Source of the DNA: Convolutriloba macropyga
Taxonomy: Eukaryota
DNA length: 64,000 nt
Assembly: GCF_964194025.1 (NCBI RefSeq)
Contig: NC_134470.1
Location: forward strand, 38,502,001-38,566,000
Reading direction: 5' to 3'
A program made the translations under genes and the position numbers. The notes under the pieces were generated by a model. The model was given only the letters and a program-made list of their open reading frames with translations. It was not told where the DNA came from and ran no database searches. Within the stretch, counting starts at the first letter, position 1. The number at the start of each line of letters is the position of its first letter. Positions 15,401 through 40,104 of this stretch are shown piece after piece.

Positions 15401-18400
15401 CGATAAAAATTACGAAAAGTTTTTGAACTCAAGAGTTTAACAAATCAGTTGCTGTAGATTTAATAAAAACTTGATTCAAGCTGTTGAAAACGACAGAAAG
15501 AAATGGTTGCTGATTATTGAAATACGTAATTCCAACAAAATAAAGCCAAATATATAATGCATTAAAAATGTTTTCAATGATTTTGTTTCAGAACCCAAGA
15601 AAATTGCAAATTTGCTTCATTAGATTACCCAATCATGTCAAATACAGTGGTCCAAAAAGACAAATCGCTCAAAGTTCAGTAATTACCCGTAAAAATTTGA
15701 ATTTTCGGTTCATTAATGCGGAGATGCAGTTACATTGTTTGGCGGAAACAAGCCACTGGGACCGTCACCAATTCCTTCATGGGCCATTAGGGACTCCTGT
15801 CCTGCTGTGGTGTCACGTATTCAACATTTGATAAACAACTGCATCAGGTTTTCTTGTTTCCCAAAACAACTTAAAACGCATGTAATACCACTTCTTAATA
15901 CATTTACCGTCCCATATCAATCACACCGTGCCTCTCTAAAATCATAGAAATTGTTTTGCGGGATCAAGTCATTGAGTACCTGAAAATAAACTCTTCAGCA
16001 AAAATCAAAATGGCTTTCGAAAGAAACGATCTACCAGACTCTATAATTTCATTGGGAAAGAAACAGATCAAAAGAATTTTATTTCTGCAGCGTTGATAGA
16101 TCTCTCAAAGGCTCTCGATTCAATTAACCATTAAATACTCGAATGAGACCTCTGCAATCCAGTCAATGAAAAGTTTTTTATTCGAGCAAAAGCAGGCGGT
16201 AGTTTTACAGAACATTACATCTGATGAATTGAGAATTTATTGAGGAGTGCCTCTGGGTGCCGCGCTTGGTACACTCATTTTCATTAATTATATCAATTAT
16301 ATGTATACCTACGCTGATAGCGGTCCACAATTCGTACAATATTCAGATGATAAGTTAATTCTGACATCTGATAAAAGCCTAAAAGAAAGCAAATCAAAAC
16401 TAGCAGCCAGCGACAGTAATCTTGTGAAATATTTTGAGAAAATGATTTAGGAATAAAACTAAAAAAATTTTGAGTTCGTTATATTTAGCATAAACGCCAG
16501 AAGAAATCAGATTGAAACGTTGATAGTTAACAACTCCCATTTTTTGAAAAAGCCGAGGTGAAATAGCGAGGTGTACAAATTGACAACCAATAGAATTCAA
16601 AGTGAGGATAAATCTTTACTTAGGAAGATGGCTCAAGGCATTAAAACGGTTTACGCAATAAGAAACTCAATACCCAAAAACATGCTCAAATTACTTCTCA
16701 ACGCCTTCGTTTTCAGTCACTTAGTCACTTACATTACTCTCGGTCGTGTTACATCAATAAGAAAACATTTGCTAAGATGTATAGAAAAACAAATCAACTG
16801 GGTCTTGAAAGGAACTTTCAATGGGAGGAAATTTGATTCCACTAAAGTACTAAAAAAGAGCACAGTGTTATCCCGATTGTTTTGTTTTTAGAACATAAAA
16901 AAATAGATTTATTTCTGGAAACAAGGGCTTCTACCGTTATTTGATATTACACTTGGTCAACTACTCCCGACGTGGACAATTGCGAATCAAATCTAACAAA
17001 AACTCTTCTTCAAAGATAGCCTTAAAAGCAATAATTTACGGTATGGATTTGTCCGTTCTGCTATAAAAAGTTGGAATGACCTCCCGTATTTCATAAAACG
17101 AAACGCCAATAGGAAAAATTTTAAATCCCACCTAAGCAATTTTCAATTGCAAAAGTTTGAACCAAATCCAGAATATTGTTCCTAGGTACCAAGTCATCCT
17201 GGTTTGATTTTAAGTTCTGGAGCGTTTGATTGGCTGGGCTTACTTACTCTTCATAATCAAAATTTATTTAAATGACTTGATGATTGTTTGACATGTTAAA
17301 AACAGTAAAATTATTTTTTGTAAAAAAACTGATATCAAGTAATATCTAGTAAATTACACTTCGGAGTCGCTATGTAGTGCTACTATATATGTACCCTCGG
17401 AATTCAAGTTTTTTTTGTTCATAAAACAATCATATTTGTTTTTTGGTAGGTTTCTGTCGAATATCGAATTTTATGAATCCAATTGTCTGAGGACTTTGAG
17501 GGGAGAAACCGAGGCAAGAAACCAGTCGAACACAGAAAGCAGCATTAGTTTCGGAGGGTTCGGTTGTCTGTTGGCCAAAGCAGAAATCAAAAGTTCTGTT
17601 TCGACAGAGGAAAGACTTGAGAATATTAGGCAGGCTGAAATTGGAGATATACCGCTAGCAAACACAACAACGGGTTCAAATGGTAACATTGGAAATCAGT
17701 GGACAACTGATGTCAAAGCTGAATCACAGTGGTGGGCAAATTTGCAACAAATTGAGCCTCTACAATCTCCGGCAAAACGAACCGTAAATGACCGAAGCAG
17801 AGGTCAGCCCCAAAGCAGCGTTTATTCGGATAGCAGTAGCTACAAGCAACAAATTGATCAGATTAAAAGTTCATCAGAAAATGTGGCGGCTAGTTTGAGT
17901 CACGTAGACAGTAATAGAAGTAAGTCTGGAGGTAGTGGGGAGTCAGTTAGTTATAGCAATAGTGTCTTCGAGAGCAGTGTTTACTCTGCTTTAGAGCCAG
18001 CTTTCATAGCAAGTGTATATGATAACGTGGATGAACAGATAGACCCTTCATTGGATCCTTTCTCAGTTACAGAAGTTGAGGACACACAGGAGGACTTGAA
18101 CTGTAGTACCGTCACTGGTCCGGCAGTAGACGAAATTGATGCCCAAAATTATGAAACTGTGAATGGAGATGACATTGGCGATGGAAAATGTCCTCAATGT
18201 TCCTGCGCCGCTACGACTACTGAGTACAACCAAACTAGTGCCCCAATGACAGATGAAAACGACCCGAGCAATACGAGCATAACTGGCTCTCAGAGTTTGA
18301 GCATTTACGAAACCGTTTCAAGTTCAATGGCCCCGGACAACTTCGAAAATGCAAATTCTCATGGTACTGGGTATGGAGATTGCAATTCAAATGCAGATGA

Positions 18401-19181
18401 AATGGACCTTGGACGAGCAGTGGCACATTTTTTGAATTCGTGGAATCAGAAACGTCGTCAAGTGCAACGACCCGAACTGCAAAAGCAGCTAGAAGTTGCT
18501 CAGAAAATGGGTACTAAGAAACAAAGTCAAGTTGTAAATTCAGAGTCGAGATCTTGCAGTGGTTCCTCATCTACCGAAAAGTTTGAAGTTGCAGTACCAG
18601 AATATTCGAAAGCTTCAGACCCTGAGTGTCATAGCGAGTCAGAGTATAACGATGTCAGGCTTGAATACGGCAGTGCCCGCAAAAATACTCCCAAGGACGT
18701 TTCTACTGCAGTGGCTAAAAGTGAATGCTCCACATCAAAGTCCACAAAAATTTCTGCAAAATTAACTTCATTAACAAAGGACGTCACACAACCAGCTCAA
18801 AAGCCGTCGAGTGTGAGAACAAAAGGCTGCAAAAGTTCAGGCAGTGCCTCAAAAACTAAGGAATCTTCAGAAGTAAGAGGAATTGTTAAGGATAGAAAGT
18901 CGGTCTGCTCATCACAGTGGTTGTACAAAAAGGAAGAAACTAAGAGAAAATTTGACGGCTTTGAAGAGAGCAACAATTCGAAGAAAAAAAGAATGGAAGA
19001 AAAATTTGTTGAAAGATCTTCGTCTCCAGTCAAGGTCGAGTCAAAGAAAGAAGTATCACGAGACTCGCCAGATATCAAGTGTGAAAAGGACAGCAATGCT
19101 GAGCGGCAAAGGTCAACTGACGAAACTAAGTTCAAGTCGTTTAAAATTGAGAGTCGAGATCCACGTTTGAGAAAAAAGTGA
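12488..19181 (+). CDS. Uncharacterised ~689-aa protein: N-terminal dsRBD-like domain, Ser/acidic disordered middle, Lys-rich C-terminus ending RDPRLRKK
   Basis: Exon 1 is 12488 (ATG) to 12825, ending GAC AG|gtttgt (phase 2). The intron 12826-17449 ends ttttggtag|G. Exon 2 (17450-19181) is an open frame of over 570 codons. Phases match and give ...VRFVDR-FLSNIEFYE.... Confidence 0.75.
14880..17200 (+). mobile_element. Degraded LINE ORF2 (L2/CR1 group) inside the intron of the 12488-19181 gene
   Basis: Fragments LQLHAPVKK, NKPLGPSPIPSWAIRD, QNGFRK, IDLSKALDSINH, GVPLGAALGTLIFINYIN, QYSDDKLI, LLLNAFVFSHL. Confidence 0.85.
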
Positions 19182-21649: not shown

Positions 21650-22205
21650 TATCAAAACTATACAGCACTTCAAAATTATCAACATGCGAGAAGTTACATA
21701 TAATGCGTGAGCGCAGAAGTTGTTTCCAACCAGCAGCTGACTTTCAAGATTGACACAAAAGATTCCCTGTATTGGGATGTCAAAAGCTACAGATCAGCTA
21801 TGTATACTGAGGATGAATGTGCGCAACTCTCTTCCAATAATATTCCAACACATCTCCCAATGTATTTGATTCAAAAGAATCATTTCTCGTTAAATCTGTT
21901 GGAGATGAGCTAGTGTTGTCGGGAAGCAGATTTTTTTAGCAATTCCAGCAAATTGAGATCTGCTCTTACTATCATGGAAAATTGATATGGTAGCCCTCTC
22001 CATACCATTGCTATCTCGAAAAACAGTTTTTTTGACATACAGTACCAGAGTTGTACCAAGGCCTCAAGACCAAACTTGGATGGTTATCAAATGGGTTATT
22101 GTAAACCCATATTTAGAGATTTCTGAGGACCGGATTGATTCGATCACAATTTCTCAGACTCAATGCGAAAGCTGCATTGGCTCCCGCAAATACTGAATTT
22201 GCAAC
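21650..22205 (+). mobile_element. Degraded envelope-like (Gypsy env / F-protein-like) gene fragment
   Basis: Frameshifted pieces DVKSYRSAMY, FLAIP, SYYHGKL, LSIPLLSRKTVFLTYSTRVVPRPQ...IKWVIVNPYLEISED...QCESCIGSRKY*IC resemble the ectodomain of invertebrate Gypsy env proteins (recognised by eye). Confidence 0.55.
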
Positions 22206-22835
22206 GCCCACAAATAGTGCAGCCTAAGCAATGTTATTAAAAGTTTGACGTAAAATTGGTGGTAGGTCTGCTATAGCAATAAACAGAGGCCACGCTGATG
22301 TGGCTGGAGACTTGGACACAGATGCGCCATCACAATTTATAATAAATCTTATCTCAATAAAATTATTGTCTATCTTCAGCTGCGGGAGTCTAATATCTGT
22401 ACCTAAAATCTTGTTTTCAACGTAACTCAGTATTTTCGAAAGATTCTGCTCAACAGTTTTACATAACGTGGCTCGAGAGTTCAAAAAAACAATTTTCCTC
22501 TCGTCATTGATCTTTTTTGAATGCGCAAGCGCTTCAGATTCGTTTTTCAGTTGTTTGATAAACGTGCTGGGTGCAACACACTTCGAACCACATTAGGCTT
22601 GATCTCTTTTCAGGAGATCGATTAAAAGTAGATCCGGTCCATTATATTGTGCCACAATCGAAAGAAGGGAGGCAGCTGGGTTGCTGGATGAAACAGTTTG
22701 CATTTCAGAGATTTCTTCTTTTTGCTGTTGCAGCATTGTTACTGCCTGTTTTGATGTTTCTTCATTAAAACCGGCTACGTCTTCATCTGATCTACTTATC
22801 TTTTCATGACTAGATGCATCTTCGCGAGAGGGCAA
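22203..22835 (-). pseudogene. EnSpm/CACTA-type transposase, N-terminal part through the first catalytic Asp
   Basis: ORFs 22593-22835 and 22224-22484 share one frame, separated by a single TAA: ...LLSIVAQYNGPDLLLIDLLK...IINCDGASVSKSPATSAWPLFIAIADLPPILRQTFNNIA*AALFVG. This matches the animal EnSpm motif DG-x4-KS-x3-S-x-WP...LPP-x2-R...NI. Confidence 0.85.
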
Positions 22836-23089
22836 AATTATGTCTGATCCAACTCTTCCACTTCCTTGTATTGCGGCAAAAACTTAAAATTATCGTCTGA
22901 TAGCACTTTCGGCCTTATAATTTGGTTATTTTCGACGTCTTCAAATGACTGGATGCTTAGGTTTGAACCCTCATAAAGAACTTAATGAAACTTTGCAACT
23001 CATTCGTGGAAGATTTCTCTCCAACAACTTGAATTCTCTGCAGAGCTCGTCTGAACTTTTTTGTTTGCGTCAGATTGTTGTCACTGTCT

Positions 23090-23536
23090 TTGGCATGCAG
23101 ATCAGAATTCCCACAGACAATTGCAATTTCCTACCCCAAAGACTTCTTCGTTATAAAAAGTACAGAGCTCTTCATTATGTAGAATTGACGAAGAGCACGG
23201 AGCCCGACACAAGGTGTACCACGAAAACCTCCTTTCATATTATAATCACAATTAGCGCGACAAGAGTGATCTGCCCAATGTGCTACTCCAACGAGAAGTA
23301 TCCCATCCAGCTTGTAGTTTTGCTATCAAACCGACAGCATTAATGATTCCTCCAATTTTATGGTTTGCCTTGTTTTATTACACAAGCAAAAACCTCCGAA
23401 ACTGTCCGGCTATATATTTAATCCGAAGTCTAGCGGCAATGTAGGCATCTTCAAGGTCGGTAAATATTTGTTTTAAAACTCGATTTTCTTTCAATTCCTT
23501 ATCAAACCTATCTTTAGGCGACAAGTCTGTCAACAT
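23090..23536 (-). pseudogene. SET domain (SUV4-20/KMT5B-like) with post-SET cysteines, upstream of and apparently continuous with the transposase
   Basis: Reverse complement reads GILLVGVAHWADHSCRANCDYNMKGGFRGTPCVGLRALRQ (starts 23304), then after a 1-nt shift LHNEELCTFYNEEVFGVGNCNCL (ends ~23114). Compare SUV4-20 LWLGPAAFINHDCRPNC...[33 protein letters not shown]. Absent from the ORF track because of stops and shifts. Confidence 0.8.
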
Positions 23537-24539
23537 CTTAGGCTGCTGTTAAATTCTGAGAGAAGCTTCAGCTACAAATACCCTTCAGCTTGAGCAAGCA
23601 ACTCAAACAAACTCATTCACAATCGAAGATATCGAAACTAAAAAAATTAAAATAACTCATTTAGGGCCGATAGAATGTTCTCAATTGACAAACGAACGCT
23701 CGAATGTTCCAGCCGACTTTAGAGTTGAAAATTATTATCTAAAAGGCACTAGCAACTAAAAGGCACTAGCAACTCAAGTTGAGCATGAAAAAGTCAAAAC
23801 TAAGTTAAAAGTCTACCATAAAACTTCCGCTGTCAAATTTTAGAAATTTTTATACGAAATGACGCACATTCATTTGAATAATCAGAGCTTCAATTTCCAG
23901 AAACAACTATACGCATACTTTCGGATTAAACGATCATCGGTGTAAACTCAAAATCTAGACGCTCAAAACAATCGAAGACAAATTTGTAGAATGGAGTAAA
24001 TTAGAAAATTCGTAAACTGATTTCAGATAAACTCTGGAACTGTAAATTTGCGATTTCTTGGGTCTCAATATCACAGCACTTTAACTAATGACTAAACAAC
24101 ACTTAGAAGCTATAAAAAAAAGTTGGAGCACCTTTGAGCAAAACATACTTGTAGATTGGTTGAATTCCCGAGACGTTCCTCTTCATGACATACCAGAAAT
24201 TAAACATCAAATAATATAAAAATCATTTAGACATAAAATGGAGCAGGGTATTGAATACGCCTGAATCTGACTTCAGATAAACTCATTAATTATAAAGTTA
24301 TACGGGTACAACGTCGTATTAAACGCACAAAACATCTTTGTCCTTACAATGATAAAACTTATTTCTTCAAGCCCAAGAAACTGATTTACATGCGAGCAAA
24401 ATACTAGCACAGTTCTGAAAGATAGCCACGGAAATACCAATTTAACAACTCGACTATAAGTAAAAGAAAGTTTCAGCTAAATCATAGTATTACAATTGAG
24501 AGAATTTCGCTCAAAACTGTCCGAGAACGCTCTTCACTG

Positions 24540-26300
24540 ATTTCCTTGTTTCTTATTTCTCAAAACTTTTTTCTTGTCTTTACACTGTTGGCTGTATTGA
24601 CCAGTTTGACCAATTCGTGCTCTTGTCCCTCTTCAACCCTGCTTTATTAGCTGCGTTGACAGCTTCTTTTCTGGCATTTGGGTAACGGGACCGAGGAAAT
24701 ATTCTCTGTACAGGCCCTGTGAACATAGCGGAATGAATTGGCATTTGTTCTTAAAGCAGGTTAGATTTAACAAGTCACACGAGCAAATTACCCGTAAAGA
24801 CTAATAACAAGTGCTCCGAATAAGAACTTTAAAATTGCAATTCTGAAATTGCAATTACTTAAAAATGTTAGAACGTTGTCTCCTGGAGCGCTGACTCTAG
24901 TGCTTTGTCGCTGCGGTATTATCTTTTCTCTTGATAGGCCATCATTGCCAAAGGCTCATCTTCTCATTACGAGACCATACTTGAGGGAGGTGGTTACTCA
25001 ATAGGTGGTTCCGCCTCAAACTCACAGAGAAGCTCCACAGCTTCAATTTCGATGTCAATATTCAACTCTTAATTTTCCTAAACTTGCTCTTCCGTTGGGT
25101 CAAACAACTTCAGGGCTCTTGAGAACTGTAGTAAATGCTCTATTTTTTTTAGATAACTAATAAAAAAACATACCTGAACAACTAAATTTCGCTGAGCTTT
25201 CGCACGTTCCTATCTCTACTCTCGCGTAAGCAGTGTTTTGTGTTCACTGTTAAAATGGGCTTCACTGTTTTCGAATCCATCATTAAAAAAATCTTATAAC
25301 CTTTGCCACTTAAAAAATAAAAGCTCAATAAGTCCTGCTTAAAAACTTACGGGCCAGATTAATTTGATTTCAAAAAGTACTCACGATATCAATTTATTGA
25401 AGTTGTTTGATTTTCATCGTTTTGTTACTTTCTGTCACTGAAGCTTCCAGAACTTCGGTCATTTCGTGAACTTGATTTTCATTGTTGAGGCATCTCTTGG
25501 CGATGTGTTTATGCACCTGGCAATACTACAGGAAAACAAACATGCTAGCAAAAAAGCCAAGCAAACTCGACGTTTGAAACGCGATCTTAAGCATTAACAC
25601 AACCAGACAGCGAAAAAGTTGCAAATGAAAAGCTTGAACTGTCTCTGAAGTATTGAAATGGTTTTTTACATTCAACTATTGAAAGAGTCTAAGTTACGTA
25701 AACCTTTGCTACAATCACTATTACCAACAAAAGCAAAGAGCTTGGGTATTACAAGGAAAGTTTCTTTAATCTTATACCGAAAGGTAGTCAAGAGATACGA
25801 GCAAACTACTCGTAAAGAAAACAATCTAACATTTGAACAAAAAACTCTCGAAACAGCAACTAAAAAAATGCTAAGAATTGTTCAAAACATTACCTCAACG
25901 TTGACATTGTCATCAATGGCAATTGACGCTTCAGTGTTCGCTGCTATTGGATGGTCCTGCTTCACGATTATGAGATGGTCCTTCTTCACAATTATCTAAT
26001 GGTCCTGCTTCAGTGATTTTACCTCGCATGTTTTGAAGTAGATTGAACACTTATTCCAAAAACCCTTGTTCTTGTCTCCTCGTATTCTTTTCCCAGAGAA
26101 CCAAAACCTTGTTTTATGACACCATAACTTTGTGGTAGGCTCAATTCAATGACATCATTTTCAGCCGTACACAAACGATCAATAATAGAGACACTGCCCC
26201 CAGATGCTGTCATCAACTCGTATAACTCTCAGTTTGTCTTTCGCAAGTGATAGTACCAACCAACTACTCCTTTAGTCCTTTTTTGTACAAAGTTTAAACA
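24540..26300 (-). pseudogene. Spliced accessory gene remnant ending in a BEN-like domain (BEN-A)
   Basis: SLKYGLVMRR*AFGNDGLSREKIIPQRQSTRVSAPGDNVLTF (~24990-24865), then PVQRIFPRSRYPNARKEAVNAANKAG (24714-24637). Minus-strand GT donors at ~26022, 25893, 25384 and 25174. Confidence 0.55.
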
Positions 26301-26457
26301 ACAGCAAATTCTAAAAACCTCGCGATAACTTAAGAAACCGCTGGTAAACTTAAATCGAACAGGAAGCTTTAATGATCGTTAACGAGACTGGTTTTCTATT
26401 TTTGCAATTAACTGTCAAATTAGAAAACTAAATAACTGAAATTTATCAAATGTATCA

Positions 26458-26761
26458 GGTGACTTAAATCTGGGAAAGCGTAAATTGCACAAACAAAACA
26501 AATTAGCACATATCTCCGACAGCAGCAATCGCAATTTGGGTCTGAGTTATGTCAAACCTGCCGACAAAGTACCAGCAGAAAGACTAGCGCTTGAAAACTG
26601 GTTCCAGATGTGTTTGGGGGACTTAAATCTGGGAAGGCAAATAAATTAACGCTAACAAACCTAATTAGCAACTATCTCAGAGAGTAAGAATTGCGGTTTA
26701 AATCGTCCGAGCTTTGTCAAACACGCCGGCACAGTACCAGCAGAAAGACTAGAGCTTGAAA
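26458..26761. repeat. Two diverged ~160-bp direct repeats
   Basis: gacttaaatctgggaa ... gtaccagcagaaagactag.gcttgaaa occurs twice. Confidence 0.8.
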
Positions 26762-26819
26762 GAAAGTATTCAGGTTTTTGCAGATTTAAAACATTTCGTT
26801 TTTGCTGACCGGTACCAGT

Positions 26820-29800
26820 TTTTTATGGAAATCTCAAATGTCGCCCGCTGTTGTAACTGCTTTCTTCAGATAGGCTTTCCTCTCCCGTTCAGCTTGATTG
26901 GCACTGTCTTGCGCTTTGCGATCAGCCAATCGGGGATTTATTGGGTGCTTCTGATGGGCAACATCTAAAACAAGACTTGTGTGCGAAGTGCTAACGAATG
27001 AGAGGCGGAGTCCTTAAGGTTTGATGTTTACATGCTTCAAGAAAGAGGGCTGATAGACAACGGTACAAATTTTTTTGAATGCCGGAAACAGTTGGACGCC
27101 TGTTTTAAGGTTTCTAGTAGCAATAAAACAAAAAAGGGTCAGAAACTTCTCCTCCTAAACACGTACGACAACGAGAATAGTTTCAAAATTTGTTGGAAAG
27201 CATTCCAAAGACAGTACTTGTGCGTTTAGATGATTACAATCAAATTTTAAGCTACTTCGAATGTTACTCCATTGATTCACAATTGAATAATTTGAGAACA
27301 AGGCGTGTTGCTACATATAAAACAAACCAGAAAATTTTTGGACGAGCATTGGATCAGCATCAACTTTTCTTGTCGAGTGCTCAGTATTGATCATGTCGTT
27401 CACTAAGCCATCGTCGCCAAACAGGTGACGGCGCAACTCCCAGCCAAGTTTAGGTGTATGCATTTGCCTTTAGTTTGTTTATAAGATCTTCACCGAAATG
27501 CATGACACTTTTCAATGGATGCTGCTCCATTAGGTTTGCGTGCATGTCCACACTTTGAAAGCCACGAGCATGAAGCACAAGTATTTCTTCCAGCTCCCCG
27601 GCCTAATTAAAATTCAACATTTTTGCGAAAAATAATTTTCTGAGAACACATAGACAATACCGTTTCGGGAAACTTGTGAAAAATTGTACTTAAAATGCAA
27701 ACGCTTGTTTTGAATTTTGCTTATGTCACCATCTATGACTTACACTTACATGCTCATCGTATTCCCGACAGATTTTCTTTCTCTTCTTACCGCCTTTCTT
27801 CTTTAGCAACACAAAAGTACTCTTCGCCTTGCTAATGCGCTCTTCATTGCCTTCGAGAAATCTAGCAAACTCTACTTCGTCACAATTCCCATACATGCAA
27901 TTTATCTGCTCAGGCATATCAACTGTTTCTTTTAACAAAACAGGCGTGTTAGGGCTGTGCTCGTCTTTACAATTAATATTTGAAATTTGAGACTATGCCG
28001 TTTATTGTACCAATCTTGCATTTCTTTTTGGATTCTTCTTTGGTTTCGGCTTTACAAACGAAAGGTTTATCGTCTTTGTAAGAAAACAAGATTGAAGTGT
28101 CCATGTTATACATTCTTAACTGCCTTCGGGCATCATCATCGGAACCAAAGGAAAACTGAGGCGCCTTGATGGTTTGCTGAATTTGTGGCATTTTCATTTA
28201 ACAAATCTCCTGAAGTTTACTTCGAAAAAAGTTTGTTGAGTTTAAAAAACGTAGCACAGTGCATTTCGAGTGTTCATTTACATAAAAACAAAGTAACCGA
28301 TGAAAGAGAAAAGAACTAATTAGAAAGCCGACAAAGTACCGACAAAAAATCATTTCGGTCAGAGGCAATAACTATTTCGAATATTCCTAGAAGCATACTT
28401 TTGTGAGCGGTCAGTGCGACGGACAAAAAACGCTTTTTTATCTACGAAGTCTGCAAGAAGTCATGCTCCTTAATTGCTTGGAAGGAAAAACAATTGGAGA
28501 TTCAATAATTCCAAAATTGAGAAACGGTCCTTCAAACTCATAACACATATCTAGAAGTCTCAGGCAAACTTTTCTTAACTTTAAAGGCACCAAATTAATA
28601 CAGATGAATACAGAATGGTTGCTCGTACAACAATGAGTACTAAGAATAAATCATAGACAACAAAAAACTATTCCTAATCAATTTTTTAATGGAATTCTCA
28701 AATCTCTCCCGCTTTTGTAACTGCTCTCTTCAGATGGGTCTTCCTCTCCCGTCCAGCTTGATTGGCAGTGTCTCGCGCTTTGCAATAAGCCAACAGGGGG
28801 TTTATCGGGTACTTCTGATGGACATTATCTAAAACAAAAGACTTTTGTGCGAAGTGCTATCGAACTAGAGGCAGGGTCCTTAAGGTTTGATGTTAACATG
28901 CTTCAAGAAAGAGGGCTGATAAACAACGGCACAACTTTTATTGAATGCGGGAAAAAGGTGGACGCCTGTTTTAAAGCGCTTAGTAGCAATAAAACAAAAA
29001 AAATTTCAGAAATTTCTCATCCAAAACACGCGCGACAACGAGAATATATTCAAAATTTTTTCGAGAGCATTTCAAAGACGGTAATTTTGCGTTTAGATGA
29101 CTACAACCAAATATTAAGCTACTTAAAATGTTACTCTATTGATTTGCAGTTGAATAATTTGAACAAGGCGTGGATACTACATATAAAACGAAACAGAAAG
29201 TTTTTGGACGAGCATTGGATCAGCGTGAAATATTGTTGTTGAGTGCTCAGCATCGATCATGTCATTCACTAAGCCATCATCGCCAAACAGGTGACGGCGC
29301 AACTACCAGCCAAGTTTAAGTGCATGCATTTGCCTTTAGTTTGTTTATAAGATCTTCCCCCAAATGCATGACACTTTTAACTGGATGCTGCTGCAGTAAG
29401 TTTGCGTGCATGTCCACATTTTGAAAGCCACGAGCATGAAGCACAAGTATTTCTTCCAGCTCCCCGGCCTAATTAAAATTCAACATTTTTGCGAAAATTA
29501 ATTTTCTGAGAACACAAAAACAATACCGTTTCGGGAAACTTGTGAAAAATTGTACTTTAAATGCAAACGCTTGTTTTGAATTTTGCTTATGTCACCATCT
29601 ATGACTTACACTTACATGCTCATCGTATTCCCGACAGATTTTCTTTCTCTTCTTACCGCCTTTCTTCTTTAGCAACACAAATGCTAATGCGCCTTGCTAA
29701 TGCGCTCTTCATTGCCTTCGAGAAATCTAGCAAACTCTACTTCGTCACAATTCCCATACATGCAATTTATCTGCTCAGGCATATCAACTGTTCCTTTAAA

Positions 29801-31710
29801 CAAAACAGGCGTGTTAGGGCTGTGCTCGTCTTTGCAATTAATATTTGAAATTTGAGACTATGCCGTTTATTGTACCAATCTTGCATTTCTTTTTGGATTC
29901 TTCTTTGGTTTCGGCTTTACAAACGAAATGTTTATCGTCTTTGTAAGAAAACAAGATTGAATTGTCCATGTTATACATTCTTAACTGCCTTCGGGCATCA
30001 TCATCGAAACCAAAGGAAAACTGAGGCGCCTTGATGGTTTGCTGAATTTGTGGCATTTTCATTTAACAAATCTCCTGAAGTTTACTTCGAAAAAAGTTTG
30101 TTGAGTTTAAAAAACGTAGCACAGTGCATTTCCGAGTGTTCATTTACATAAAAACAAAGTAACCGATGAAAGAGAAAAGAACTAATTAGAAAGCCGACAA
30201 AGTACCGACAAAAAATCGTTTCGGTCAGAGGCAATAACTATTTCGAATATTCCTAGAAGCATACTTTTGTGAGCGGTCAGTGCGACGGACAAAAAACGCT
30301 TTTTTATCTACAACGTCTGCAAGAAGTCATGCTCCTTAATTGCTTGGAAGGAAAAACAATTGGAGATTCAGTAATTCCAAAATTGAGAAACGGTCCTTCA
30401 AACTCATAACGCATATCTAGAAGTCTCAGGCAAACTTTTCTTAACTTTAAAGGCACCAAATTAATACAGATGAATACAGAATGGTTGCTCGTACAACAAT
30501 AAGTACTAAGAATAAATCATAGACAACAAAAAACTATTCCTAATCAATTTTTTAATGGAATTCTCAAATCTCTCCCGCTTTTGTAACTGCTCTCTTCAGA
30601 TGGGTCTTCCTCTCCCGTCCAGCTTGATTGGCACTGTCTCGCGCTTTGCAATAAACCAACAGGGGGTTTATCGGGTACTTCTGATGGACAACATCTAAAA
30701 CAAAAGACTTTTGTGCGAAGTGCTATCGAACTAGAGGCAGAGTCCTTAAGGTTTGATGTTAACATGCTTCAAGAAAGAGGGCTGATAAACAACGGCACAA
30801 CTTTTATTGAATGCGGGAAAAAGGTGGACGCCTGTTTTAAAGCGCTTAGTAGCAATAAAACGAAAAAATTTCAGAAATTTCTCATCCAAAACACGCGCGA
30901 CAACGAGAATAGATTCAAAATTTGTTCGAGAGCATTTCACAGACGGCAATTTTGCGTTTAGATGACTACAACCAAAGAGTAAGCTACTTCAAATGTTACT
31001 CTATTGATTTGCAGTTGAATAATTTGAACAAGGCGTGGATGCTACATATAAAACAAAACAGAAATTTATTGGACGAGCATTGGATCAGCGTGAAATTTTG
31101 TTGTTGAGTGCTCAGCATCGATCATGTCATTCACTAAGCCATCATCGCCAAACAGTTGACGGCGCAACTCCCGGCCAAGTTGAGAAGGGTGTGTATTTGC
31201 CTGTAGTTTTTTTTAAGATCTTCCCCCAAATGCATGACACTTTTCACTGGATGCTGCTGCAGTAAGTTTGCGTGCATGTTCACATTTTGAAAGCCACGAG
31301 CATGAAGCACAAGTATTTCTTCCAGCTCCCGGGCCTAATTAAAATTCAACATTTTTGCGAAAATTAATTTTCTGAGAACACAAAAACAATACCGTTTCGG
31401 GAAACTTGTGAAAAATTGTACTTAAAATGCAAACGAGTTTTTTGAATTTTGCTTGTGTCCCTATCTATGACTTACACTTACATGCTCGTCGTATTCCCGA
31501 CAGATTTTCTTTCTCTTCTTACCGCCTTTCTTCTTTAGCAACACAAAAGTACTCTTCGCCTTGCTAATGCGCTCTTCATTGCCTTCGAGAAATCTAGCAA
31601 TCTCTACTCCGTCAAAATTCCCAGACATGCAATTGATCTGCTCAGGCATAAATACTGGTTCTTTTGACACAACAGGCGTGTTAGGGCTGTGCTCGTCCTT
31701 ATGATTAAAA
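26820..31710. repeat. Tandem array, 1865-1866-bp period, ~2.6 units; further partial unit at ~33960-34620
   Basis: Near-identical ORFs recur at 27973/29838 and 28847/30713. Confidence 0.95.
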
Positions 31711-34114
31711 TTTGAAAATTGTGACTGTTGCGGATCAATTTCCGCCGAACTGACGTTGGATTGTGGATTTTGTGAGCCGTCGTCTTCGATTGGGATACGA
31801 ATGTCTTCATCAAGCTCCTCGTCAATTGTCTATGTCTTACTGTACCAATCCTGCTTTTCCTTTTTCAGCTGGGCAATTAGCTTTGAAAGCCTTTTCCGAA
31901 TGAAGACCGCATTAATAAACTCCAATAAAGATAAACAATCAACAAAATAGGTTGACACGTTTGCTGAACTCTAATTGATTATAATCAGTTTAATGGCGAA
32001 AAGCTACGTCTTCAGAAACAAGAACTTCAAAATCCATATGGCAAAGGTAAATCTTGATTGATCTGAAGAGTGAACAGATATGGTACTTGAAAAACTGGTG
32101 CCCTGTGCCAAATCTACTGTTTCCGTTAGTTTCCTCTAAAGCTCTCTAACTCCAGCTTTCAGTGCTGCTTTTTTATCTCCAGTTGAAAAAATGGAACTCT
32201 CAGTCGAGAAGTCTCTGTCGGCTAAAATTGGGGAAGAGGTGTTACGTTTTCAGAGAGACTATTCTAAACTATTGTTTCGGAAAACGATGGTGGACTGTCT
32301 CTTAATTATGTCAGTTTTGTCCTAAGAGGGTTATATAGAAAAAGCTTCTTCCAAATCCAAAAAACCTAAAACGGTTATCACTTTTAGGCGATTTACTGTT
32401 CATCGACTTTCATAATTTCATTTCATTAAATTCATGCTTACTCAGCATTAGGCAGGCAATGACAACATAAAATGAGTACAACTAAGTAGAGCAAATATTG
32501 TCAAAACTGGGGACCCTGAGAGCTCACTCGTCAAAAAAATTGTTTATTCATTAGGCTATCTATTGCAAAAAATGTTGAGGTTATAGATGTTAATTCTTGT
32601 GACAAAACAGACAATTGACTGACATTGGGCTAACTGCTCTAAAGCGACCAACGGTAGTGGTCTGGATTTTGAAAAAATAGTTCATAGGAATGCTTGCAAG
32701 ATGGCATTCGCTAAAAATAGAGGCTGCTGGAAAACCGCCATTTCTCGCTTTTCAACTTTTCCTCGCATTTGATCAGACGAAAAATCGAATGAATATCGAA
32801 CACCAACAGCACTGTTTTAATTGCTACAAACTTAATGTAAGAGCAATTAACTATCCCCAATTACGTTAGGCAATAAATGTACAATTTCACTTCAAAGAAA
32901 TATAGGCGGCAGATTGCCGGAATAGCTGCGAAAGAATAGACTTGCATGCCGTATAATAGAGATATAATCAGATACAGATCTAGATTGAAAAAAAATTGAG
33001 GCCGCTCAAAAAAAGTAAGTAAAAAACCTTCAGCGATAAATTTAAAAAGCATGTTGAAATTCTTTCCAAAGAAACCTTTTTTTAATTACCGCCAGTGCGC
33101 TTATGACTTCCTTTGACCTTAATTATTTCAAATTAAACTTAAGTTTTAATGTGCAAAAGTCATTTTATTGAGGTAAGTCACGTTTGATCAAAATCTATTC
33201 ACGCAGATGAAATTTTGACCTTTGCTAGAGAGAGAATGAAAAATGACGTCACGCGCGCAAACACTTTTTTTGAGTTCAAGAGGTCATTCAGAAAATTTGA
33301 CTTTTTCAGCTTTGCTTTGTGAACAAATTTAAAAAGAAAAAAAACGTCAGACGACAAAATAAAAAAACCATGAGCACCGCCATATAGCTCCGCAGAGCTT
33401 ACAGCTTCGCAGCTTTAAAAAGAATTCAGCAAACGGAGTTAAAAAAATGTTTGTTCATACAACAATAAGTACTAAGAGTAAATCAAAGACAACAAAATTA
33501 TCGCTAATCGAATTTTTTAATGTTTGCTCGCTATGTAAAAGATTCATAATGAAAGTCCGCAAAGTACGGGCCCAAATGAGAGAACTTCTGAAGAAAAGCA
33601 AACAAGCCCTGATGATCTAATTGGGATGCCGACAAAGTAACTGCTAAAATTAATTGCTTTAGAAGCATTGAATCTCTGAGTTAGGAAAGTGCAAGATTAC
33701 ATATCAAAATGTACTTTTCAAATGCAGTGACTACAAATCACAGCAAATTTTATTGCAAAGTTATTGCACCACAAGTCAGATTTTGTTGGATGGCAGTGTG
33801 TTTGAAACAAAAACTTTTAATTCCAAAACTCCAATAAAGATAAACAATCAACAAAATAAAGTGACACGTTTGCTGAACTCTGATTGATTATAATCAGTTT
33901 AATGGCGAAAAGCTACATCTTCAGCAACAACAACCTCAAAACCCATCGGCCAAGACTTGGATTCGGTATTACAAACGAAAGGTTCATCGTCTTCGTAAGA
34001 AAACAAGAACGAAGTGTCCGTGTTATATCTTCTTAACTGCCTTGGGTTATCATCATTGGAACCAGAGGAAAACTGAGGCGCCTTGATGGTCCGCTGAATT
34101 CGTGGCATTTTCAG
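30545..34114 (-). pseudogene. Accessory gene with a Cys-rich segment and a BEN-like domain (BEN-B); internally deleted copies in each array unit
   Basis: N-terminus MPRIQRTIKAPQF... (34108-33899); ...KKKGGKKRKK...YCFLCSQK...CASCSWLSKCEH...; KKLQANTHPSQLGRELRRQLFGDDGLVNDMIDAEHSTTKFHADPMLVQ (~31210-31070). Unit 1 continues KF...HALFSNYSIVNQWSNIRSSLKFDCN, matching the BEN DP...W..I pattern. Confidence 0.55.
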
Positions 34115-34857
34115 TTAACAAATCTCCCGAAGTTTACTTCGGAACAAGTTTGTTGTGTCTGAAAACGTAGTGCAGAGCAATTCCGAGTTTTCTTTTACAA
34201 AAACAAAGTAATCGATAAAAGAGAAAAGAACTAATTAGGAAGCCCACAAAGTACCGGCAAAGAATCATTTCAGTCAGAGGCTATAACTATTTCGAATATT
34301 CCTAGAACCATACTTTTGTGAGCGGTCAGTGCGAGGGAGGAAAAACGCTTTTTTTAATCTACAACGTCTGCAAGAAGTTATGCTCTTTAAATGCTGGGAA
34401 GGAAAAACAATTGGAGATTCAGTAGTTCTAAAATTGAGAAACGATCGTTCAAAACATTTCAAGTACATAAACTCATAACACACATCTAGAAGCCTCAGGC
34501 AAACTTTTCTGAACTTTAAAGACACCAAATTTATACAAATAAATACAGTTAAAACGGTGGTTGCTCATACAACAATAAGTGCTAAGAATAAATCATAGAC
34601 AACAAAAAAAAATTTTCTAATCATTTTTTTTGTTTGCTCGCTACATAACAGTATTTAAAATGAAGGCCTGCAAAGTACAGGCCCAAATGAGTGAACTTCT
34701 GGAGAAAAGCAAACAAGCTCTGATGATCAAATTGGGATGCTGACAAAGTAACGGCTAAAATTAATTGGTTTAGAAGCATTGAATCTTTAAGTTAGGAAAT
34801 TGCAAGTTTACATATCACAAATCTACTTTGCAAATAACAAGCAACAAACTGTATGGA

Positions 34858-35546
34858 TTATATCAGATTTTTCTCTCGAATAAGCTTCTTTAGCGCTGTA
34901 GCCATAGTTGTTTTGCTTTTGCGGCTTAGATGTATTCCATCATCATTGAAGCACTTGGGCCTGCATACCTCTTGGTGCAATTTGAAAAACCGATTGTTTC
35001 TTTGGCCTGCCATTAATGAATTGTAGTTTTGGATGCTTTCGTGTGTAACGTGTATCCTTTTCAAGACTGTGCACACTATTACATTCGCATTTCTCGGCAG
35101 TGCTCGTAGGGCAGTAACAAAGTTGATCAGTTGGGCTAGAACAGCACAAGGAGTGTCACCAGGATTTCCAAAGTGTGACAGGTTGTTGCCTCCTGCACAA
35201 AAAATAATATTCCTATACGACTGTAACGTTGGCAGTAGTTCATGGAAATCAGCAATTAAGCCGCCTTGCAACGAATAGACGACACACTGATTTATGCATA
35301 TGCCGTCCATCATTGAGCGCCGACTACCGTCGTCTGGATCTTTAGCTCGTTGGCAAAATTACTTTGTAAGAATTCAATTGTTCCCCGATCAGTTTCACGC
35401 TTTATTCTACCCGTTTGCTGCACCGGTAAAAACTTAAGTTTTAGCGGTCTCCTATCTCGTGCTCTGCAGTTATTTACAAATGTCGATCCGATGCGAAAAT
35501 CCACTTGCAATCTTGAATAAGCGGTAATTATATACATAGACATCAC
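34858..35546 (-). pseudogene. SGNH/GDSL-type hydrolase (transposon-esterase-like), frameshifted in the catalytic GDS motif
   Basis: ORF 34858-35313 has block II G (LQGG), block III GGNN and block V DGIHL. The upstream ORF ends TTVVG; the DNA reads GGC GC TCA ATG, and restoring one A gives VVGDSMM, joining both ORFs. Confidence 0.85.
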
Positions 35547-35724
35547 TGCATGATATATAGTTTACCCGTTACATTTACCCTCTGAATCAGGAACCAACCA
35601 ATAGTATAATAGTATAGATATTATAGTACGCCATTATTGGGTAGTGTCATGTAGATTATCAAATTCGCCTTGACGAGAGCTTTTCAACGATAAAAGTATT
35701 GTGTTGCTACGGGCCAAAGTCTGG

Positions 35725-35815
35725 TCGCTACGTGTCGGGCAGCATGGTTGTGTCAGGGATCATCGCTGTGTCGGGGCGCATCGCTGTGTCGGGGCGCGTC
35801 GCTGTGGCGGGCCGC
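35725..35815. repeat. GC-rich 18-bp minisatellite (catcgctgtgtcggggcg)
   Basis: Two to three near-perfect units plus degenerate ones. Confidence 0.85.
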
Positions 35816-36859
35816 AATTTAAGATTCTCTAACTTCTCGTTGTAACTATCACTCTAGCGAACTATTCGACAATTCCTACTTCATTCGGAACTTTGGATTC
35901 GATGCCACGTTTATCTTGATGCGTACCTACCTCGGGGAGGTAGGGACGCATGAGGTGACAGCTTCTCTGCTGTCACTTGACCTGGCCGCACACGGATAAG
36001 CATGTCACGTGACCCCGGAGGGAGGTTGTGAACGAAAATTTCACTCTGTCATCCGAGTAAGCCGCTATAAAGATGAAGTAAATTAACTAAGTGATAAAAG
36101 TAACGTATTCGAGAAGCTCCTTAGCTGGGCAATACAGCAAGCATAGAGATACGTTAAAAAAGATTGCATGCAGTTGGGGTGGGGGGGGGGCGGGGTGGTG
36201 AGTTGTGGGACCTGGACTGGCATGCATGCGAAAAAGGCTTATCTCGAAAACTACTGAACCGAATTTAAAAACTGAATATGCCTTCGAATCAGCATGAACT
36301 GGGGTTTCGGTCTAGTGTAAAAAAGTTAAAAATTGAGTAAGTCAAAACTCGATTTTTGCCATTCTGGCTGAAATTGGCTCATTTTCAGAAACATTTTTGG
36401 AATGCGAAAAATTGAGCCATGAAACTGGATCGAAAGTTTTGGTCCCTTATATATTTGTAAAGAATATTAAATGAGCAAGAAAATGATATAACATACTTGT
36501 AAAATCAATTTGTGACAAAAAAAAGTTATTAAGCTAAACAACTCTGAAAGTATGAAAATTTCGCCGAAATCAACCCTGATTTTGGCCTCTACATTGCTCT
36601 CGCCTTCTTTTGTCTGGCTATACTTTAAAAAACAAATTTTATGGTCATTCGGAGCGTAAATTGTAGTTTCTTTTGATACCAAAAACTTGTATATTTTGTG
36701 TTTTTATTTGTGAGAATTAAGTCGAAGTTCGACAAAAATAGCTAATTTTTGCCCCTAACTCGACAGTTTTTTTGTATGTAGTAAATAGAAACAAAACAAA
36801 TCGAAAAAAGTTGTGTATTTTTTTAAAGTGTACAATATCACATCAAGCATGGACTAATA

Positions 36860-37500
36860 TAGATTTTGTAACTCGTCATTGTCAAAAAGTTATTATGAAA
36901 CGTTTTTCAAGAAGTTTGACATTTTCTTCATTTACTCCGAGAGTTCTTTGAAATTTTGTATACAAATCAAAATATTACACAAATTTTAAAACTACGTCAT
37001 CAGGGCAAAAAAATGGGCTATTGTAGAGTTTTTAGCTCGTCGTCTTCAAAAAGTTATTAACAAACGTTTTTCAAAAAGTTTGACATTTTCTTGACCTAAT
37101 TCGACAGTTCTTTGAAATATTGTTAACAAATCAAAATTTTGGCATTTATTTCTACAAAAATTCAGAAAATAGCTTTTTACGGCAGCAAAAGGGGCTTACA
37201 TAAACTTTCCAACTCGTCTTTTTCAAAAAAATATTATCGACGGTTTTTCATGAAGTTCGACATTTTCTTCACCTAATTTGACAGTTCTTTGAAAATTTTT
37301 TATACAAATCAACATATTGCCATTTGTTTCTACACTCATTGTAAGAAAGTAGAGTCAAGGCAAAAAAATGGACTGACACACTTTTTTTTACTCTATCTAT
37401 TCGAAAAGTTATCAAAAAAAGTTTTATCAAGTAGATTTAAACAAATTTTTTTAAACAAAGCCTATTTATTCAAACTTCTATAAATTTTAATAAACAAACT
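36860..37500. repeat. Satellite-like array, ~170-bp unit, ~4 diverged copies
   Basis: ctcgtc..tcaaaaagttatta..aaacgtttttcaa.aagtttgacattttctt...gacagttctttgaaa at ~36870, 37035, 37210 and 37390. Confidence 0.75.
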
Positions 37501-39394
37501 TTACAGTTCTGTGCATTTGGTACGTTTTGTTTTCATATGGTAATACCAATATTTAGATTTAAAGGATTTTCCACTATAAACAGTAAGTTTGTAACAATCG
37601 AAATCAATTTCGCGAAAAAAAAATCAATTTTGTAAATAATTTGCTGTAATAACAAAAAACATTAGTCGTTGTGCTCGCATAAATCCACTGCGTTGCGGTG
37701 CGCTACAATTCACTGAGTGGCACCAGCCCTCGAGGATTTGTATAGGGTACTTCATTATATTCGACAAGTCGGTAGCTAAATTTGCTATCACGGGACATGT
37801 CTGACAAATTCTGTAACTTTTGTTTGCGTTGCGGTCAGCTTTAAAACGGCTTACCCCTATGCATTGCATACAGAAAGAATCCGTGAGTATGAGTTTGATT
37901 TGATAAAATAATTTTTTTACCTGACCAAAAACCACTGCTTTTTAAAGTTTTTTCGCTATTTTTTGACCAAAAGACGAAAACCTAACTTTCTAGAGGAGCT
38001 AGACGAATAAATTTCAGAATTTTGTACTTCCTATAAATAGTTAACTACCTAAGCCGACAAAACTAGTTTTTAACAAAAAATATTTTTCGACTGTTCGCTT
38101 ATTTGGAACTAAAAAGAGATGCATTCTTGATTTTTCTCTAGTGAAGCTAGACCAGCAGTTTTTGGTGCTTCAAGCTCCGCACACATGAATATATTATGGC
38201 AATGAGCTTCTTATCTTCCCATGGATTGATCAAAATAGACTACGTTTTGGAAATTTTCTGGCTAAGACGATTCAAAGAAATTCTGATTTTATAGAGAAGC
38301 TGGACAAAAAATGTTTTTGTAAAATTCTTTGACCCGAAGAAATCAAATGCTTTTTAAAGAAACAATATACGATTTTTTGATTATTTGAAACTAAAAAGAG
38401 ACGAAGACCTAGCTTTTCTTTTATAAAAGCTGGAAATATTTTTTCATTTAAGCTCCTCATACTCTGATTATGAGTTTATTTGGAGGCCAACTCTTGACCC
38501 AAATAGAAAACTGTTCTAATAAAATTTTGTTCTTCTTCACTTTGGATTAAAAATAGACGAAAATCTAACATTTTAGAGAAGCTGGACCAAACTGTTGAAG
38601 TATTCATACTATAAATATGAATGGAATAATACACAAATATAATGAGAAATATTCGCCCAGAACATCAAAAAAGACAACGAGTACCCATTAACTTACAAGA
38701 TAAAGTCAACACGGAATTTTAGAAATTACCTTCAGAAGGACACATAGAAATAGTAAACATTTTTCAGATCAATATTATATACTACTTCTAAGTGAAAAAG
38801 TACGAAAACAAATGTCCTCAGATATGGCTAAAACTAAAACATCTTTGTTTTTTATGCTTATCTTCTATCCATAAGCTGATTATCTATCCATTAAGGTGGT
38901 CCTCTATTGACAGCATGTTCGACATACTGCAATCTCGTAATATTGGAAAATATAATACTATAATTAGTTTTTATCTTTTTTTAATATTGCTGATTCTTCA
39001 GCGCTGATCTTATATGCTTTTGATATTACTTTTCCAATTATTAAACTTTCTTAGATTAGCGGTGAATTTTTAGAAGAACTGCAATTTTTAGCGGTAAAAA
39101 CAATTTTTTCCTTCCACCGCATACGGGGTGAAAAAATTTATTCACCGCTTAAAAGTTTTTTTCACCTCATTCATCGCCTTTAGCGCAAATCTTACACTTT
39201 TTATTCAAATTCGCTGCTAAATTTACATCTTCTAGCGATTTTTAGCGGTGAAACCTTGACCCAGGTGGACCAAAACTTTTGATTGACCAAATGACTTTTG
39301 TTGTAGCATGTCCTCACTTTGTTAAGTTCAATACTCCATCGGCAATTCCGTTTGTCATCGACAATTTAATTTGTCCATGTTTCCAAAAAATGAG

Positions 39395-39560
39395 CTAGCA
39401 AATTCCAGGACAACAGGTTTTGATCTAGCCGAATTCCACAACACGGTTTTTGTCCAGCCAAATTCCAGGACGTATGTTTTAGTTCCACCCAAATTCTAGG
39501 ACGGTTGTTTTAGTTCCAGCCAAAGTCCAGGACATCACATTGGGTCCAGACAAATTCTTT
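39395..39560. repeat. Degenerate ~30-bp tandem repeat
   Basis: (c/t)agccaaattccaggac-type unit about six times. Confidence 0.7.
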
Positions 39561-40104
39561 TCATACCCAATATCTGTCGAGGACAGTCTTTTCCTACCTA
39601 AAATCTGTCGAGTACGGTCTTTTAATAATTCCAGGTCTCGACTAGGGTGGTAATGTGAGGTGGACCTTTCTCGTGTCAAGTCGAGTTCGTAACTCTTTGG
39701 AAATATTGCGGTAGTTTGATATTAAAGCTGTTGAACATTTGAATCCACTTTCCAGGCTGCAGTATTGGTCATTTGGGAAGACTTTTTCGTGCACTTTTGT
39801 CTACCGGGGTTAAACAAAAGTTATAAACTTATAACTTTCCTTTATGGATCAATAAAATAGAACAAAAAGTTCTACGAAATTGGCAGGGTTAGACTTCATG
39901 AAACAAAAATATAGATTTTAAAGCTGTTTCGTGGATCCTTTTGAAATTTTGAGACCACCAATGGACTCTTCCGCGGGTAATGTGAGTCTACATTAGCAGT
40001 CTAAGAAAAGTTAGGTCCTAATATAGCTTTTCTGACGTCAAAATGGTTTCGGATAAGCCAGAACTCTAAAACATGAAGAAACACATATAGCACCAAGATC
40101 ATAG

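Follow-up and report, generated by a model that had tools for sequence, protein, structure and literature searches.

The window analysed here, a stretch of 64,000 nucleotides from Convolutriloba macropyga, carries on its minus strand, between 22200 and 35650, the remnants of four co-oriented genes: an SGNH hydrolase, two genes that we call B and A, and a SET-transposase. A first-pass annotation had described such remnants in this place and order, and we find them there, from the SGNH gene at 35503-34858 to the SET-transposase at 23616-22202. The copy in the window is dead, that is, it is cut at 22202, it is frameshifted, and its gene B is triplicated. Its features, from the surviving end inwards, are as follows.

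39616-39647, minus strand: terminal inverted repeat whose first bases are CCCTAG (present in inverted orientation at the opposite end of two-ended copies)
39056-39615, unstranded: subterminal region with short direct repeats (78% identity to young copies)
36850-37434, unstranded: remnant of a tandem array of ~177-bp units (self-matches; TRF)
35588-36800, unstranded: internal non-coding module common to other loci, containing CACTAC (locus alignments)
34858-35503, minus strand: SGNH/GDSL esterase-like gene, single exon, one frameshift (weak Pfam match; profile matches; motifs)
33938-34108, minus strand: second, displaced copy of the beginning of exon 1 of gene B (comparison of copies)
about 32050-32305, minus strand: fifth gene, overlooked in the first-pass annotation and broken here (present in 17 of 21 elements from other families)
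26819-31912, minus strand: gene B, of 3 exons (weakly Tudor-like domain, then linker or coiled coil, then BEN), tandemly triplicated (~1866 bp), with no unbroken copy (self-matches; spliced models)
24538-26278, minus strand: gene A, 4 exons, broken (paralogue of B; spliced models)
23095-23616, minus strand: predicted SUV4-20-type SET domain and its N-terminal helices, interrupted by 5 frameshifts and 2 stops (profile, model)
22202-23094, minus strand: acidic linker and first part of an EnSpm transposase, with the first catalytic Asp, cut at 22202 (Pfam; alignments)

With the displaced duplicate included, the pieces of gene B extend over 34108-26837. A short piece of another repeat, with three matches elsewhere, adjoins the transposase break (22150-22201). 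On the plus strand outside the element, positions 17343-19181 hold a 612-aa low-complexity open frame without a Pfam match, probably a host exon, and an exon at about 46160-46800 resembles, by eye, a phospholipase B/GDSL host gene.

Boundaries and copies of the element

DNA searches of the 1.18-Gb genome with the four parts of the window copy recovered 10 other young copies that carry all four modules in the same order and orientation. The young copies are 97-98% identical to one another and 84-86% identical to the window copy; an eleventh copy, C5b, holds the SGNH gene and gene B only. Their joint, ordered presence in these 10 copies shows that the four modules belong to one element, as had been surmised from the window. 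The expectation that copies would keep this gene order was borne out among the young copies, but not in other families: the order is B-A in the window's family and A-B elsewhere.

The CACTAC at 35641-35646 had been taken for the element's terminus and for a boundary shared among copies. We rule this candidate out, because homology continues through it: the alignment crosses 35646 in all 29 of the other loci that match window positions 35440-35660, and in 28 of the 29 it extends to at least 36490. CACTAC is absent at the aligned position in each of the 23 loci (of the 29) that were displayed; in one locus, L004, it is read in a second tandem copy and is internal there too. Fifteen loci (L016-L030) match the window from 35588 rightwards and run leftwards into other repeated DNA, with no cargo match in 1.5 kb; these are probably non-autonomous elements or members of other families.

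Comparison of 30-kb stretches among copies places the true end of the window copy at 39647. The terminal inverted repeat (TIR) found there, about 32 bp long, starts 5'-CCCTAG, has a 23-bp core, and is inverted at both ends of six two-ended copies, which are 18.4-25.8 kb long. A 2-bp target-site duplication (TSD) flanks five of these six, and in two other families the count is two of four. Thus, the inverted terminal pairs with short duplications that had been predicted do occur, with 2 bp, but they belong to the CCCTAG repeat and not to CACTAC. A 21-mer from the TIR has 229 exact matches genome-wide, against none for its reversed control, and the spacing of some pairs, only 0.5-1.8 kb, suggests non-autonomous derivatives. 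The window copy itself spans at least 22202-39647; its second end was lost at the break at 22202, and a search within the window for the remainder of the element did not find it.

The ends of the two-ended copies and of the other families read CCCTAG or CCCAGG, not 5'-CACTA, and they presumably fit the wider CMCWR terminal consensus. For the CMC group as a whole, an excerpt of PMC12730594 gives as criteria a DDE triad with C(2)C and H(3-4)H motifs, and it states that most CMCT elements end in 5'-CA. With the DDE, C(2)C and H(3)H residues described below, the short TIR and a 2-bp duplication that lies within the 2-5 bp usual for the superfamily, we assign the window element, as a dead copy, to the EnSpm/CACTA DNA transposons, with a full length of 18-26 kb; the superfamily first proposed is thus retained, with CCCTA ends. 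In the anatomy of the element, taken alone, we have very high confidence.

The SET-transposase fusion

In the young copies the SET domain continues in frame into the transposase, in frames of 648 and 680 aa, as the proposed fusion had implied. These frames match Pfam SET with E 3e-9, and Transposase_21 and DUF1258 weakly. The longest of the eight frames listed for the window's family reaches at most 752 aa; elsewhere in the genome, SET and EnSpm/CACTA transposase stand together in one frame of about 980 aa. A genome search with the SET part gave at least 150 matches from 2125 candidates, at 50-100% identity, and about 34 of the 150 scored matches lie in stop-free frames of at least 980 aa. The families that carry the fusion are 30-65% alike. 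Although Transposase_21 and DUF1258 remain below the cut-off in the window's family (E ~1e-3), they exceed it in related fusions, for example, P0176, P0181 and P0190. The transposase residues are invariant wherever counted: the catalytic Asp residues in 80/80 and 73/73 sequences, the Cys residues of C(2)C in 72/72 and 73/73, both His residues of H(3)H in 52/52, and the Glu of the FES motif in all 10 displayed rows that reach that position.

A HMMER protein search returned 38 matches of at least 650 aa, 17 of them with the same SET domain; most are about 27-37% like any sequence compared. P0213 is encoded in the present genome. The best match of P0166 there, among the best candidates, which alone were scored, is 38-39% identical, so that another genome is the likely source of this fusion. 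When the SET label is mapped onto a transposase tree of 40 such proteins, the SET-bearing transposases cluster, with 3 changes compared with 13.4 under shuffled labels, a pattern in line with one old capture of SET followed by some losses. In the literature searched we found no published SUV4-20-EnSpm fusion; Repbase lay outside that search, and a prior description there is possible. A SUV4-20 SET domain fused to an animal CACTA transposase is, within that literature, an apparently unreported variant.

The SET domain itself can be assigned to SUV4-20 by profile and by predicted fold, which agrees with the earlier guess that the enzyme acts on H4K20. Its profile matches SUV420H1/H2 with E 2e-14 to 7e-12, whereas the next family has 2e-7. 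An AlphaFold model (pLDDT 77), in which the N-terminal helices are kept, aligns with both SUV420H1 and SUV420H2 at Z 16.8, against Z 10.0 for the next best structure; the rmsd is 2.9 over 180 residues and 2.4 over 159, and Foldseek gives E 1.5e-10. The host's own SUV4-20 has one match in the genome (exon L149:1182-1883:-), with a canonical active site. Since the element's SET is only 26-34% identical to it, the capture is old, and, given this low identity, the substrate may have changed as well. The loop before the SET core is shortened.

We counted active-site residues over 98 SET sequences, many of them near-copies, using the numbering of human SUV420H1 and taking as denominators the sequences with a residue at each position. 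Catalytic and cofactor residues are nearly invariant. The lysine-binding Ser251 is kept in 86/86, Asn272 in 85/86, His273 in 84/86, Cys275 in 83/86, the channel residue Tyr307 in 80/82, Cys319 in 79/80 and Cys321 in 77/80; several distant fusions have N-S, N-N or D-L in place of N-H. The fourth zinc Cys is replaced, and a His lies six residues past Cys321 in 75/81, so that the fourth ligand is now probably His. The pocket of Phe, Trp and Ile through which SUV4-20 enzymes require H4K20me1 as substrate has changed in a concerted way: Tyr stands at Phe281 in 83/85, Leu, Met or Val at Trp264 in 85/85, and Ala or Val at Ile271 in 85/86. According to an excerpt of PMC3874154, Ser161 and Tyr217 are key active-site residues of Suv4-20h2, and the change of Phe281 to Tyr alone gave ‘a dramatic loss of activity’ in Suv4-20h1. 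Found here alongside smaller neighbours, the same change suggests a re-tuned pocket, while it still allows for a dead reader.

Accompanying genes and tandem arrays

Genes A and B are paralogues, with GT-AG introns in models that we spliced by script, and the BEN domain of each is split by the same phase-1 intron. The BEN calls made earlier for these genes depend on this splicing. None of 24 single exons matches Pfam BEN, and a genome-wide search with PF10523 matched other repeats and not genes A and B. Against a profile built from Pfam-positive BEN frames of the present genome, however, 46 of 49 spliced domains outscore every one of 9800 shuffles (best E 1e-9), and hhalign matches the spliced domains to this profile at 97.4%, E 1e-11; the profile itself matches BEND3 in the PDB with E 0.002. 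Both calls thus hold after splicing, and DNA binding is predicted for both proteins. Contigs of four runs had no joints at the predicted A and B introns and are uninformative for expression.

The model of the N-terminal domain of gene B (pLDDT 79) is a beta barrel whose top match is the Tudor domain of KDM4C (Z 6.1, rmsd 2.3 over 56 residues; Foldseek E ~1), with ARID4B at Z 4.4, both being of the hybrid Tudor kind. The corresponding profile of gene A found nothing in the PDB under E 0.38, and word-index searches with gene B found no intronless or named homologue. That the BEN domain of A and of B is each preceded by a weakly Tudor-like domain is a lead only. Other multi-copy, intronless BEN genes occur in the genome (L141-L148, e.g. 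L144:1408-2517:- and L143:1429-1950:-), with 82 matches, 42 of them over the cut-off; some of their N-termini weakly resemble that of gene B, and other transposons likely carry them as cargo.

Among 21 elements from other families, all have gene A and 20 have gene B. The fifth gene, found in 17 of the 21, encodes a coiled coil of about 90 aa with a VDLTxD motif, VDLTxDDS for the gene of the window, which we take to be SUMO-interaction-like (SIM-like). The esterase is a different matter: 16 of the 21 elements lack it and five have it. Genes A and B are thus nearly universal in this sample, and the SGNH gene is not obligatory.

The SGNH call, for its part, was upheld by the motifs. Pfam scores stay under the cut-off, with Lipase_GDSL_2 at E 0.0028 in the window copy, and all four blocks of the SGNH/GDSL hydrolases (GDS, G, GxN and DxxH) are present, among them GDS (where the frameshift lies), GGNN and DG(I/V)H. 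A profile matches GDSL lipases with E 0.002 and, with E 0.012, PDB 4c1b, an ‘ORF1-encoded protein’ that we take to be a LINE ORF1 esterase; a single-sequence search of the PDB gave no match, and word-index searches found no intronless or named homologue. A genome search with SGNH gave at least 150 matches. Of these we sampled 10 loci, chosen for having no listed SET match alongside: seven have a same-strand SET-transposase within 20 kb, one has BEN only, and two have neither. The SET-transposases near these seven loci are of four family types, with only 29-34% SET identity. We thus regard SGNH as ancient in the lineage yet dispensable.

Five of the 21 elements of other families have a gene of about 200 aa. 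Such a gene, basic and without a convincing Pfam match, occupies the SGNH slot at L098:745-1563:- and L118:2006-2650:-, and within one family one copy has this gene in the slot, one has SGNH, and one has neither. Another SGNH type, only distantly related (about 25% identity), lies at L131:9128-9697:-, downstream of the non-coding module that accompanies the window's SGNH.

Intact copies also contain kilobase-long tandem arrays, of 173-180-bp units or their dimers and trimers, on both sides of the genes. In a TRF survey of 36 stretches, most sampled elements have arrays of ~173-180-bp units on one or both gene flanks. One 174-bp unit is 85-95% alike between families whose proteins are only ~50% alike, which indicates exchange or conservation of the arrays. 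In the copy on C7 (L041), the 173-bp array hosts a nested LTR retroelement, whose direct repeats measure 448 bp. In Arabidopsis, the targets of VANC form tandem repeats that serve as sites for the transposon's own regulator (excerpt of PMC5735166), and by analogy with VANC the arrays are candidate binding sites for proteins of the element.

Selection, proposed mechanism and known systems

The first-pass annotation had suggested a search for purifying selection on the cargo genes. Comparing the young family with a relative, C9, in one between-family contrast by a simple counting method, we obtain dN/dS of 0.18 for SET, 0.16 for the transposase and 0.16-0.23 for BEN-A; for the SGNH and gene B domains, pS is 0.78-0.86 and pN 0.13-0.21. 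By this contrast, the four named modules are under purifying selection between families. Private changes in the young copies, conversely, are near neutral (for example, 1.03 for SET and 0.94 for SGNH), and the values for the window copy are mixed, 0.38-1.42, as expected for a dead copy. This is how genes behave that are maintained as long as the element transposes and decay once a copy has inserted.

We lean, if only slightly, towards an active, re-tuned methyltransferase that the transposase brings in cis, with the BEN proteins as TnpA-like helpers. The SET domain would likely still act on lysines, with histone H4K20 as its most probable substrate in nucleosomes to which the transposase is bound, and the transposase would deliver the enzyme to the element's ends, the excision site and the new target. 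For the two BEN proteins we envisage binding to the subterminal repeats or the 173-180-bp arrays, the part that TnpA plays in plant CACTA elements, and perhaps the reading of chromatin through a Tudor-like lobe. Phe281Tyr, together with Trp264Leu and Ile271Ala, would shift the product to a lower methyl state, and SGNH and the SIM-like peptide would be auxiliary. In this way the element would condition its own chromatin, with a view to transposing, repairing breaks and restraining itself, and would not erase the silencing imposed by the host.

It is important to weigh this mechanism against others that the same genes might serve. One is anti-silencing, as put forward in the first-pass annotation: the SET, BEN and SIM proteins could instead keep the element open, through H4K20me1 or by titrating SUMO-dependent host silencers. 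A cargo without demethylase or remodeller, a SIM label that is putative, a parent enzyme whose marks are mostly repressive or repair-linked, a pocket change that disables the mammalian enzyme and an esterase missing from 16 of 21 sampled elements make this unlikely in our judgment, even though sequence-specific binders next to tandem arrays recall VANC (PMC5735166), a Tyr in the switch position as a rule promotes monomethylation (excerpt of PMC3874154), the SIM-like peptide occurs in 17 of 21 elements, and the lineage is very successful, with its at least 150 SET matches among 2125 candidates. Phe281Tyr, the altered N-H motif of several distant lineages and the retained N-terminal helices would also suit a catalytically weak or dead module that binds nucleosomes, tethering the transposase to H4 tails so as to choose targets, or shielding H4K20 against the enzyme of the host; this seems improbable to us, given that Ser, Asn-His, Tyr and the zinc Cys residues are near-invariant across families ~50-60% identical, and that Trp and Ile both shrink in a coordinated change of the pocket.

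We give a slim chance to methylation of a non-histone target, be it the transposase, a BEN protein or a protein of the host's repair machinery, that would tune transposition. The low identity to the host SUV4-20 and the shortened loop might be read in this way, but SUV4-20 contacts H4 largely via its main chain (excerpt of PMC3874154), and low identity need not alter the substrate. Finally, an optional SGNH gene, whose slot can hold another gene and which in two of 10 sampled loci has no partner within 20 kb, could belong to passively captured fragments or nested unrelated repeats, as in Pack-CACTA elements. This explanation, scarcely credible to us, is already largely refuted by content conserved across families 30-65% alike, by conserved introns and by purifying selection. 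Beyond the re-tuned methyltransferase that we prefer, one may imagine a complete private chromatin kit that sets the chromatin state of the copies independently of the host, comprising a re-tuned H4K20 writer fused to the transposase, two BEN proteins that recognise specific sequences and have Tudor-like reader domains, a SUMO-binding peptide and the element's own nucleosome-length arrays as landing pads; we offer this only tentatively, and consider it rather doubtful.

Transposons with chromatin enzymes are already known from plants, fungi and oomycetes. Here, in an animal CACTA lineage, a predicted SUV4-20 writer fused to the transposase has been kept under selection through dozens of families, and many frames are still intact, which makes it testable whether animal transposons write their own chromatin. 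The fusions also provide a set of naturally occurring variants of the SUV4-20 active site, among them a substitution that disables the mammalian enzyme, and such elements might be one way in which satellites and heterochromatin are seeded.

Among known systems, the closest is the animal branch of EnSpm/CACTA (PF02992 Transposase_21, PF06869 DUF1258), which is alike in DDE, C(2)C, H(3)H, 2-bp TSD, a short TIR starting CCCTA, subterminal repeats and separate DNA-binding helper genes; the present element differs in its CCC rather than CA ends, its N-terminal SET, its four or five extra genes and its kilobase-long, nucleosome-sized arrays. With SUV4-20H1/H2 (KMT5B/C) it shares the N-terminal-helix fold, Ser251, NHxC, Tyr307 and the post-SET zinc cysteines, and it departs from them in Phe281Tyr, Trp264Leu/Met/Val, Ile271Ala/Val and the last zinc ligand. 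SETMAR/Metnase likewise has a SET domain fused N-terminally to a transposase and is linked to break repair, but there the host has domesticated one gene, whose transposase is of mariner origin and whose SET domain is of another type (Z 7.0 against our model), whereas the present fusion is part of mobile, multi-copy elements. VANDAL VANC and Spm TnpA are transposon-encoded regulators, likened to the present ones by role and not by homology; VANC removes DNA methylation, while the present element encodes a predicted writer. HarbingerS and oomycete MuDR families carry SET genes (Repbase Reports 2014, via an excerpt of PMC12730594), and are thus DNA transposons with a SET gene as here, although of other superfamilies and compared by description only. 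Fungal EnSpm, ESTA and Plavaka elements, which carry TET/JBP (PMC12730594, excerpt), are CMC-type elements with a chromatin-modifying enzyme too, but they are fungal, and their enzyme is an eraser of DNA methylation.
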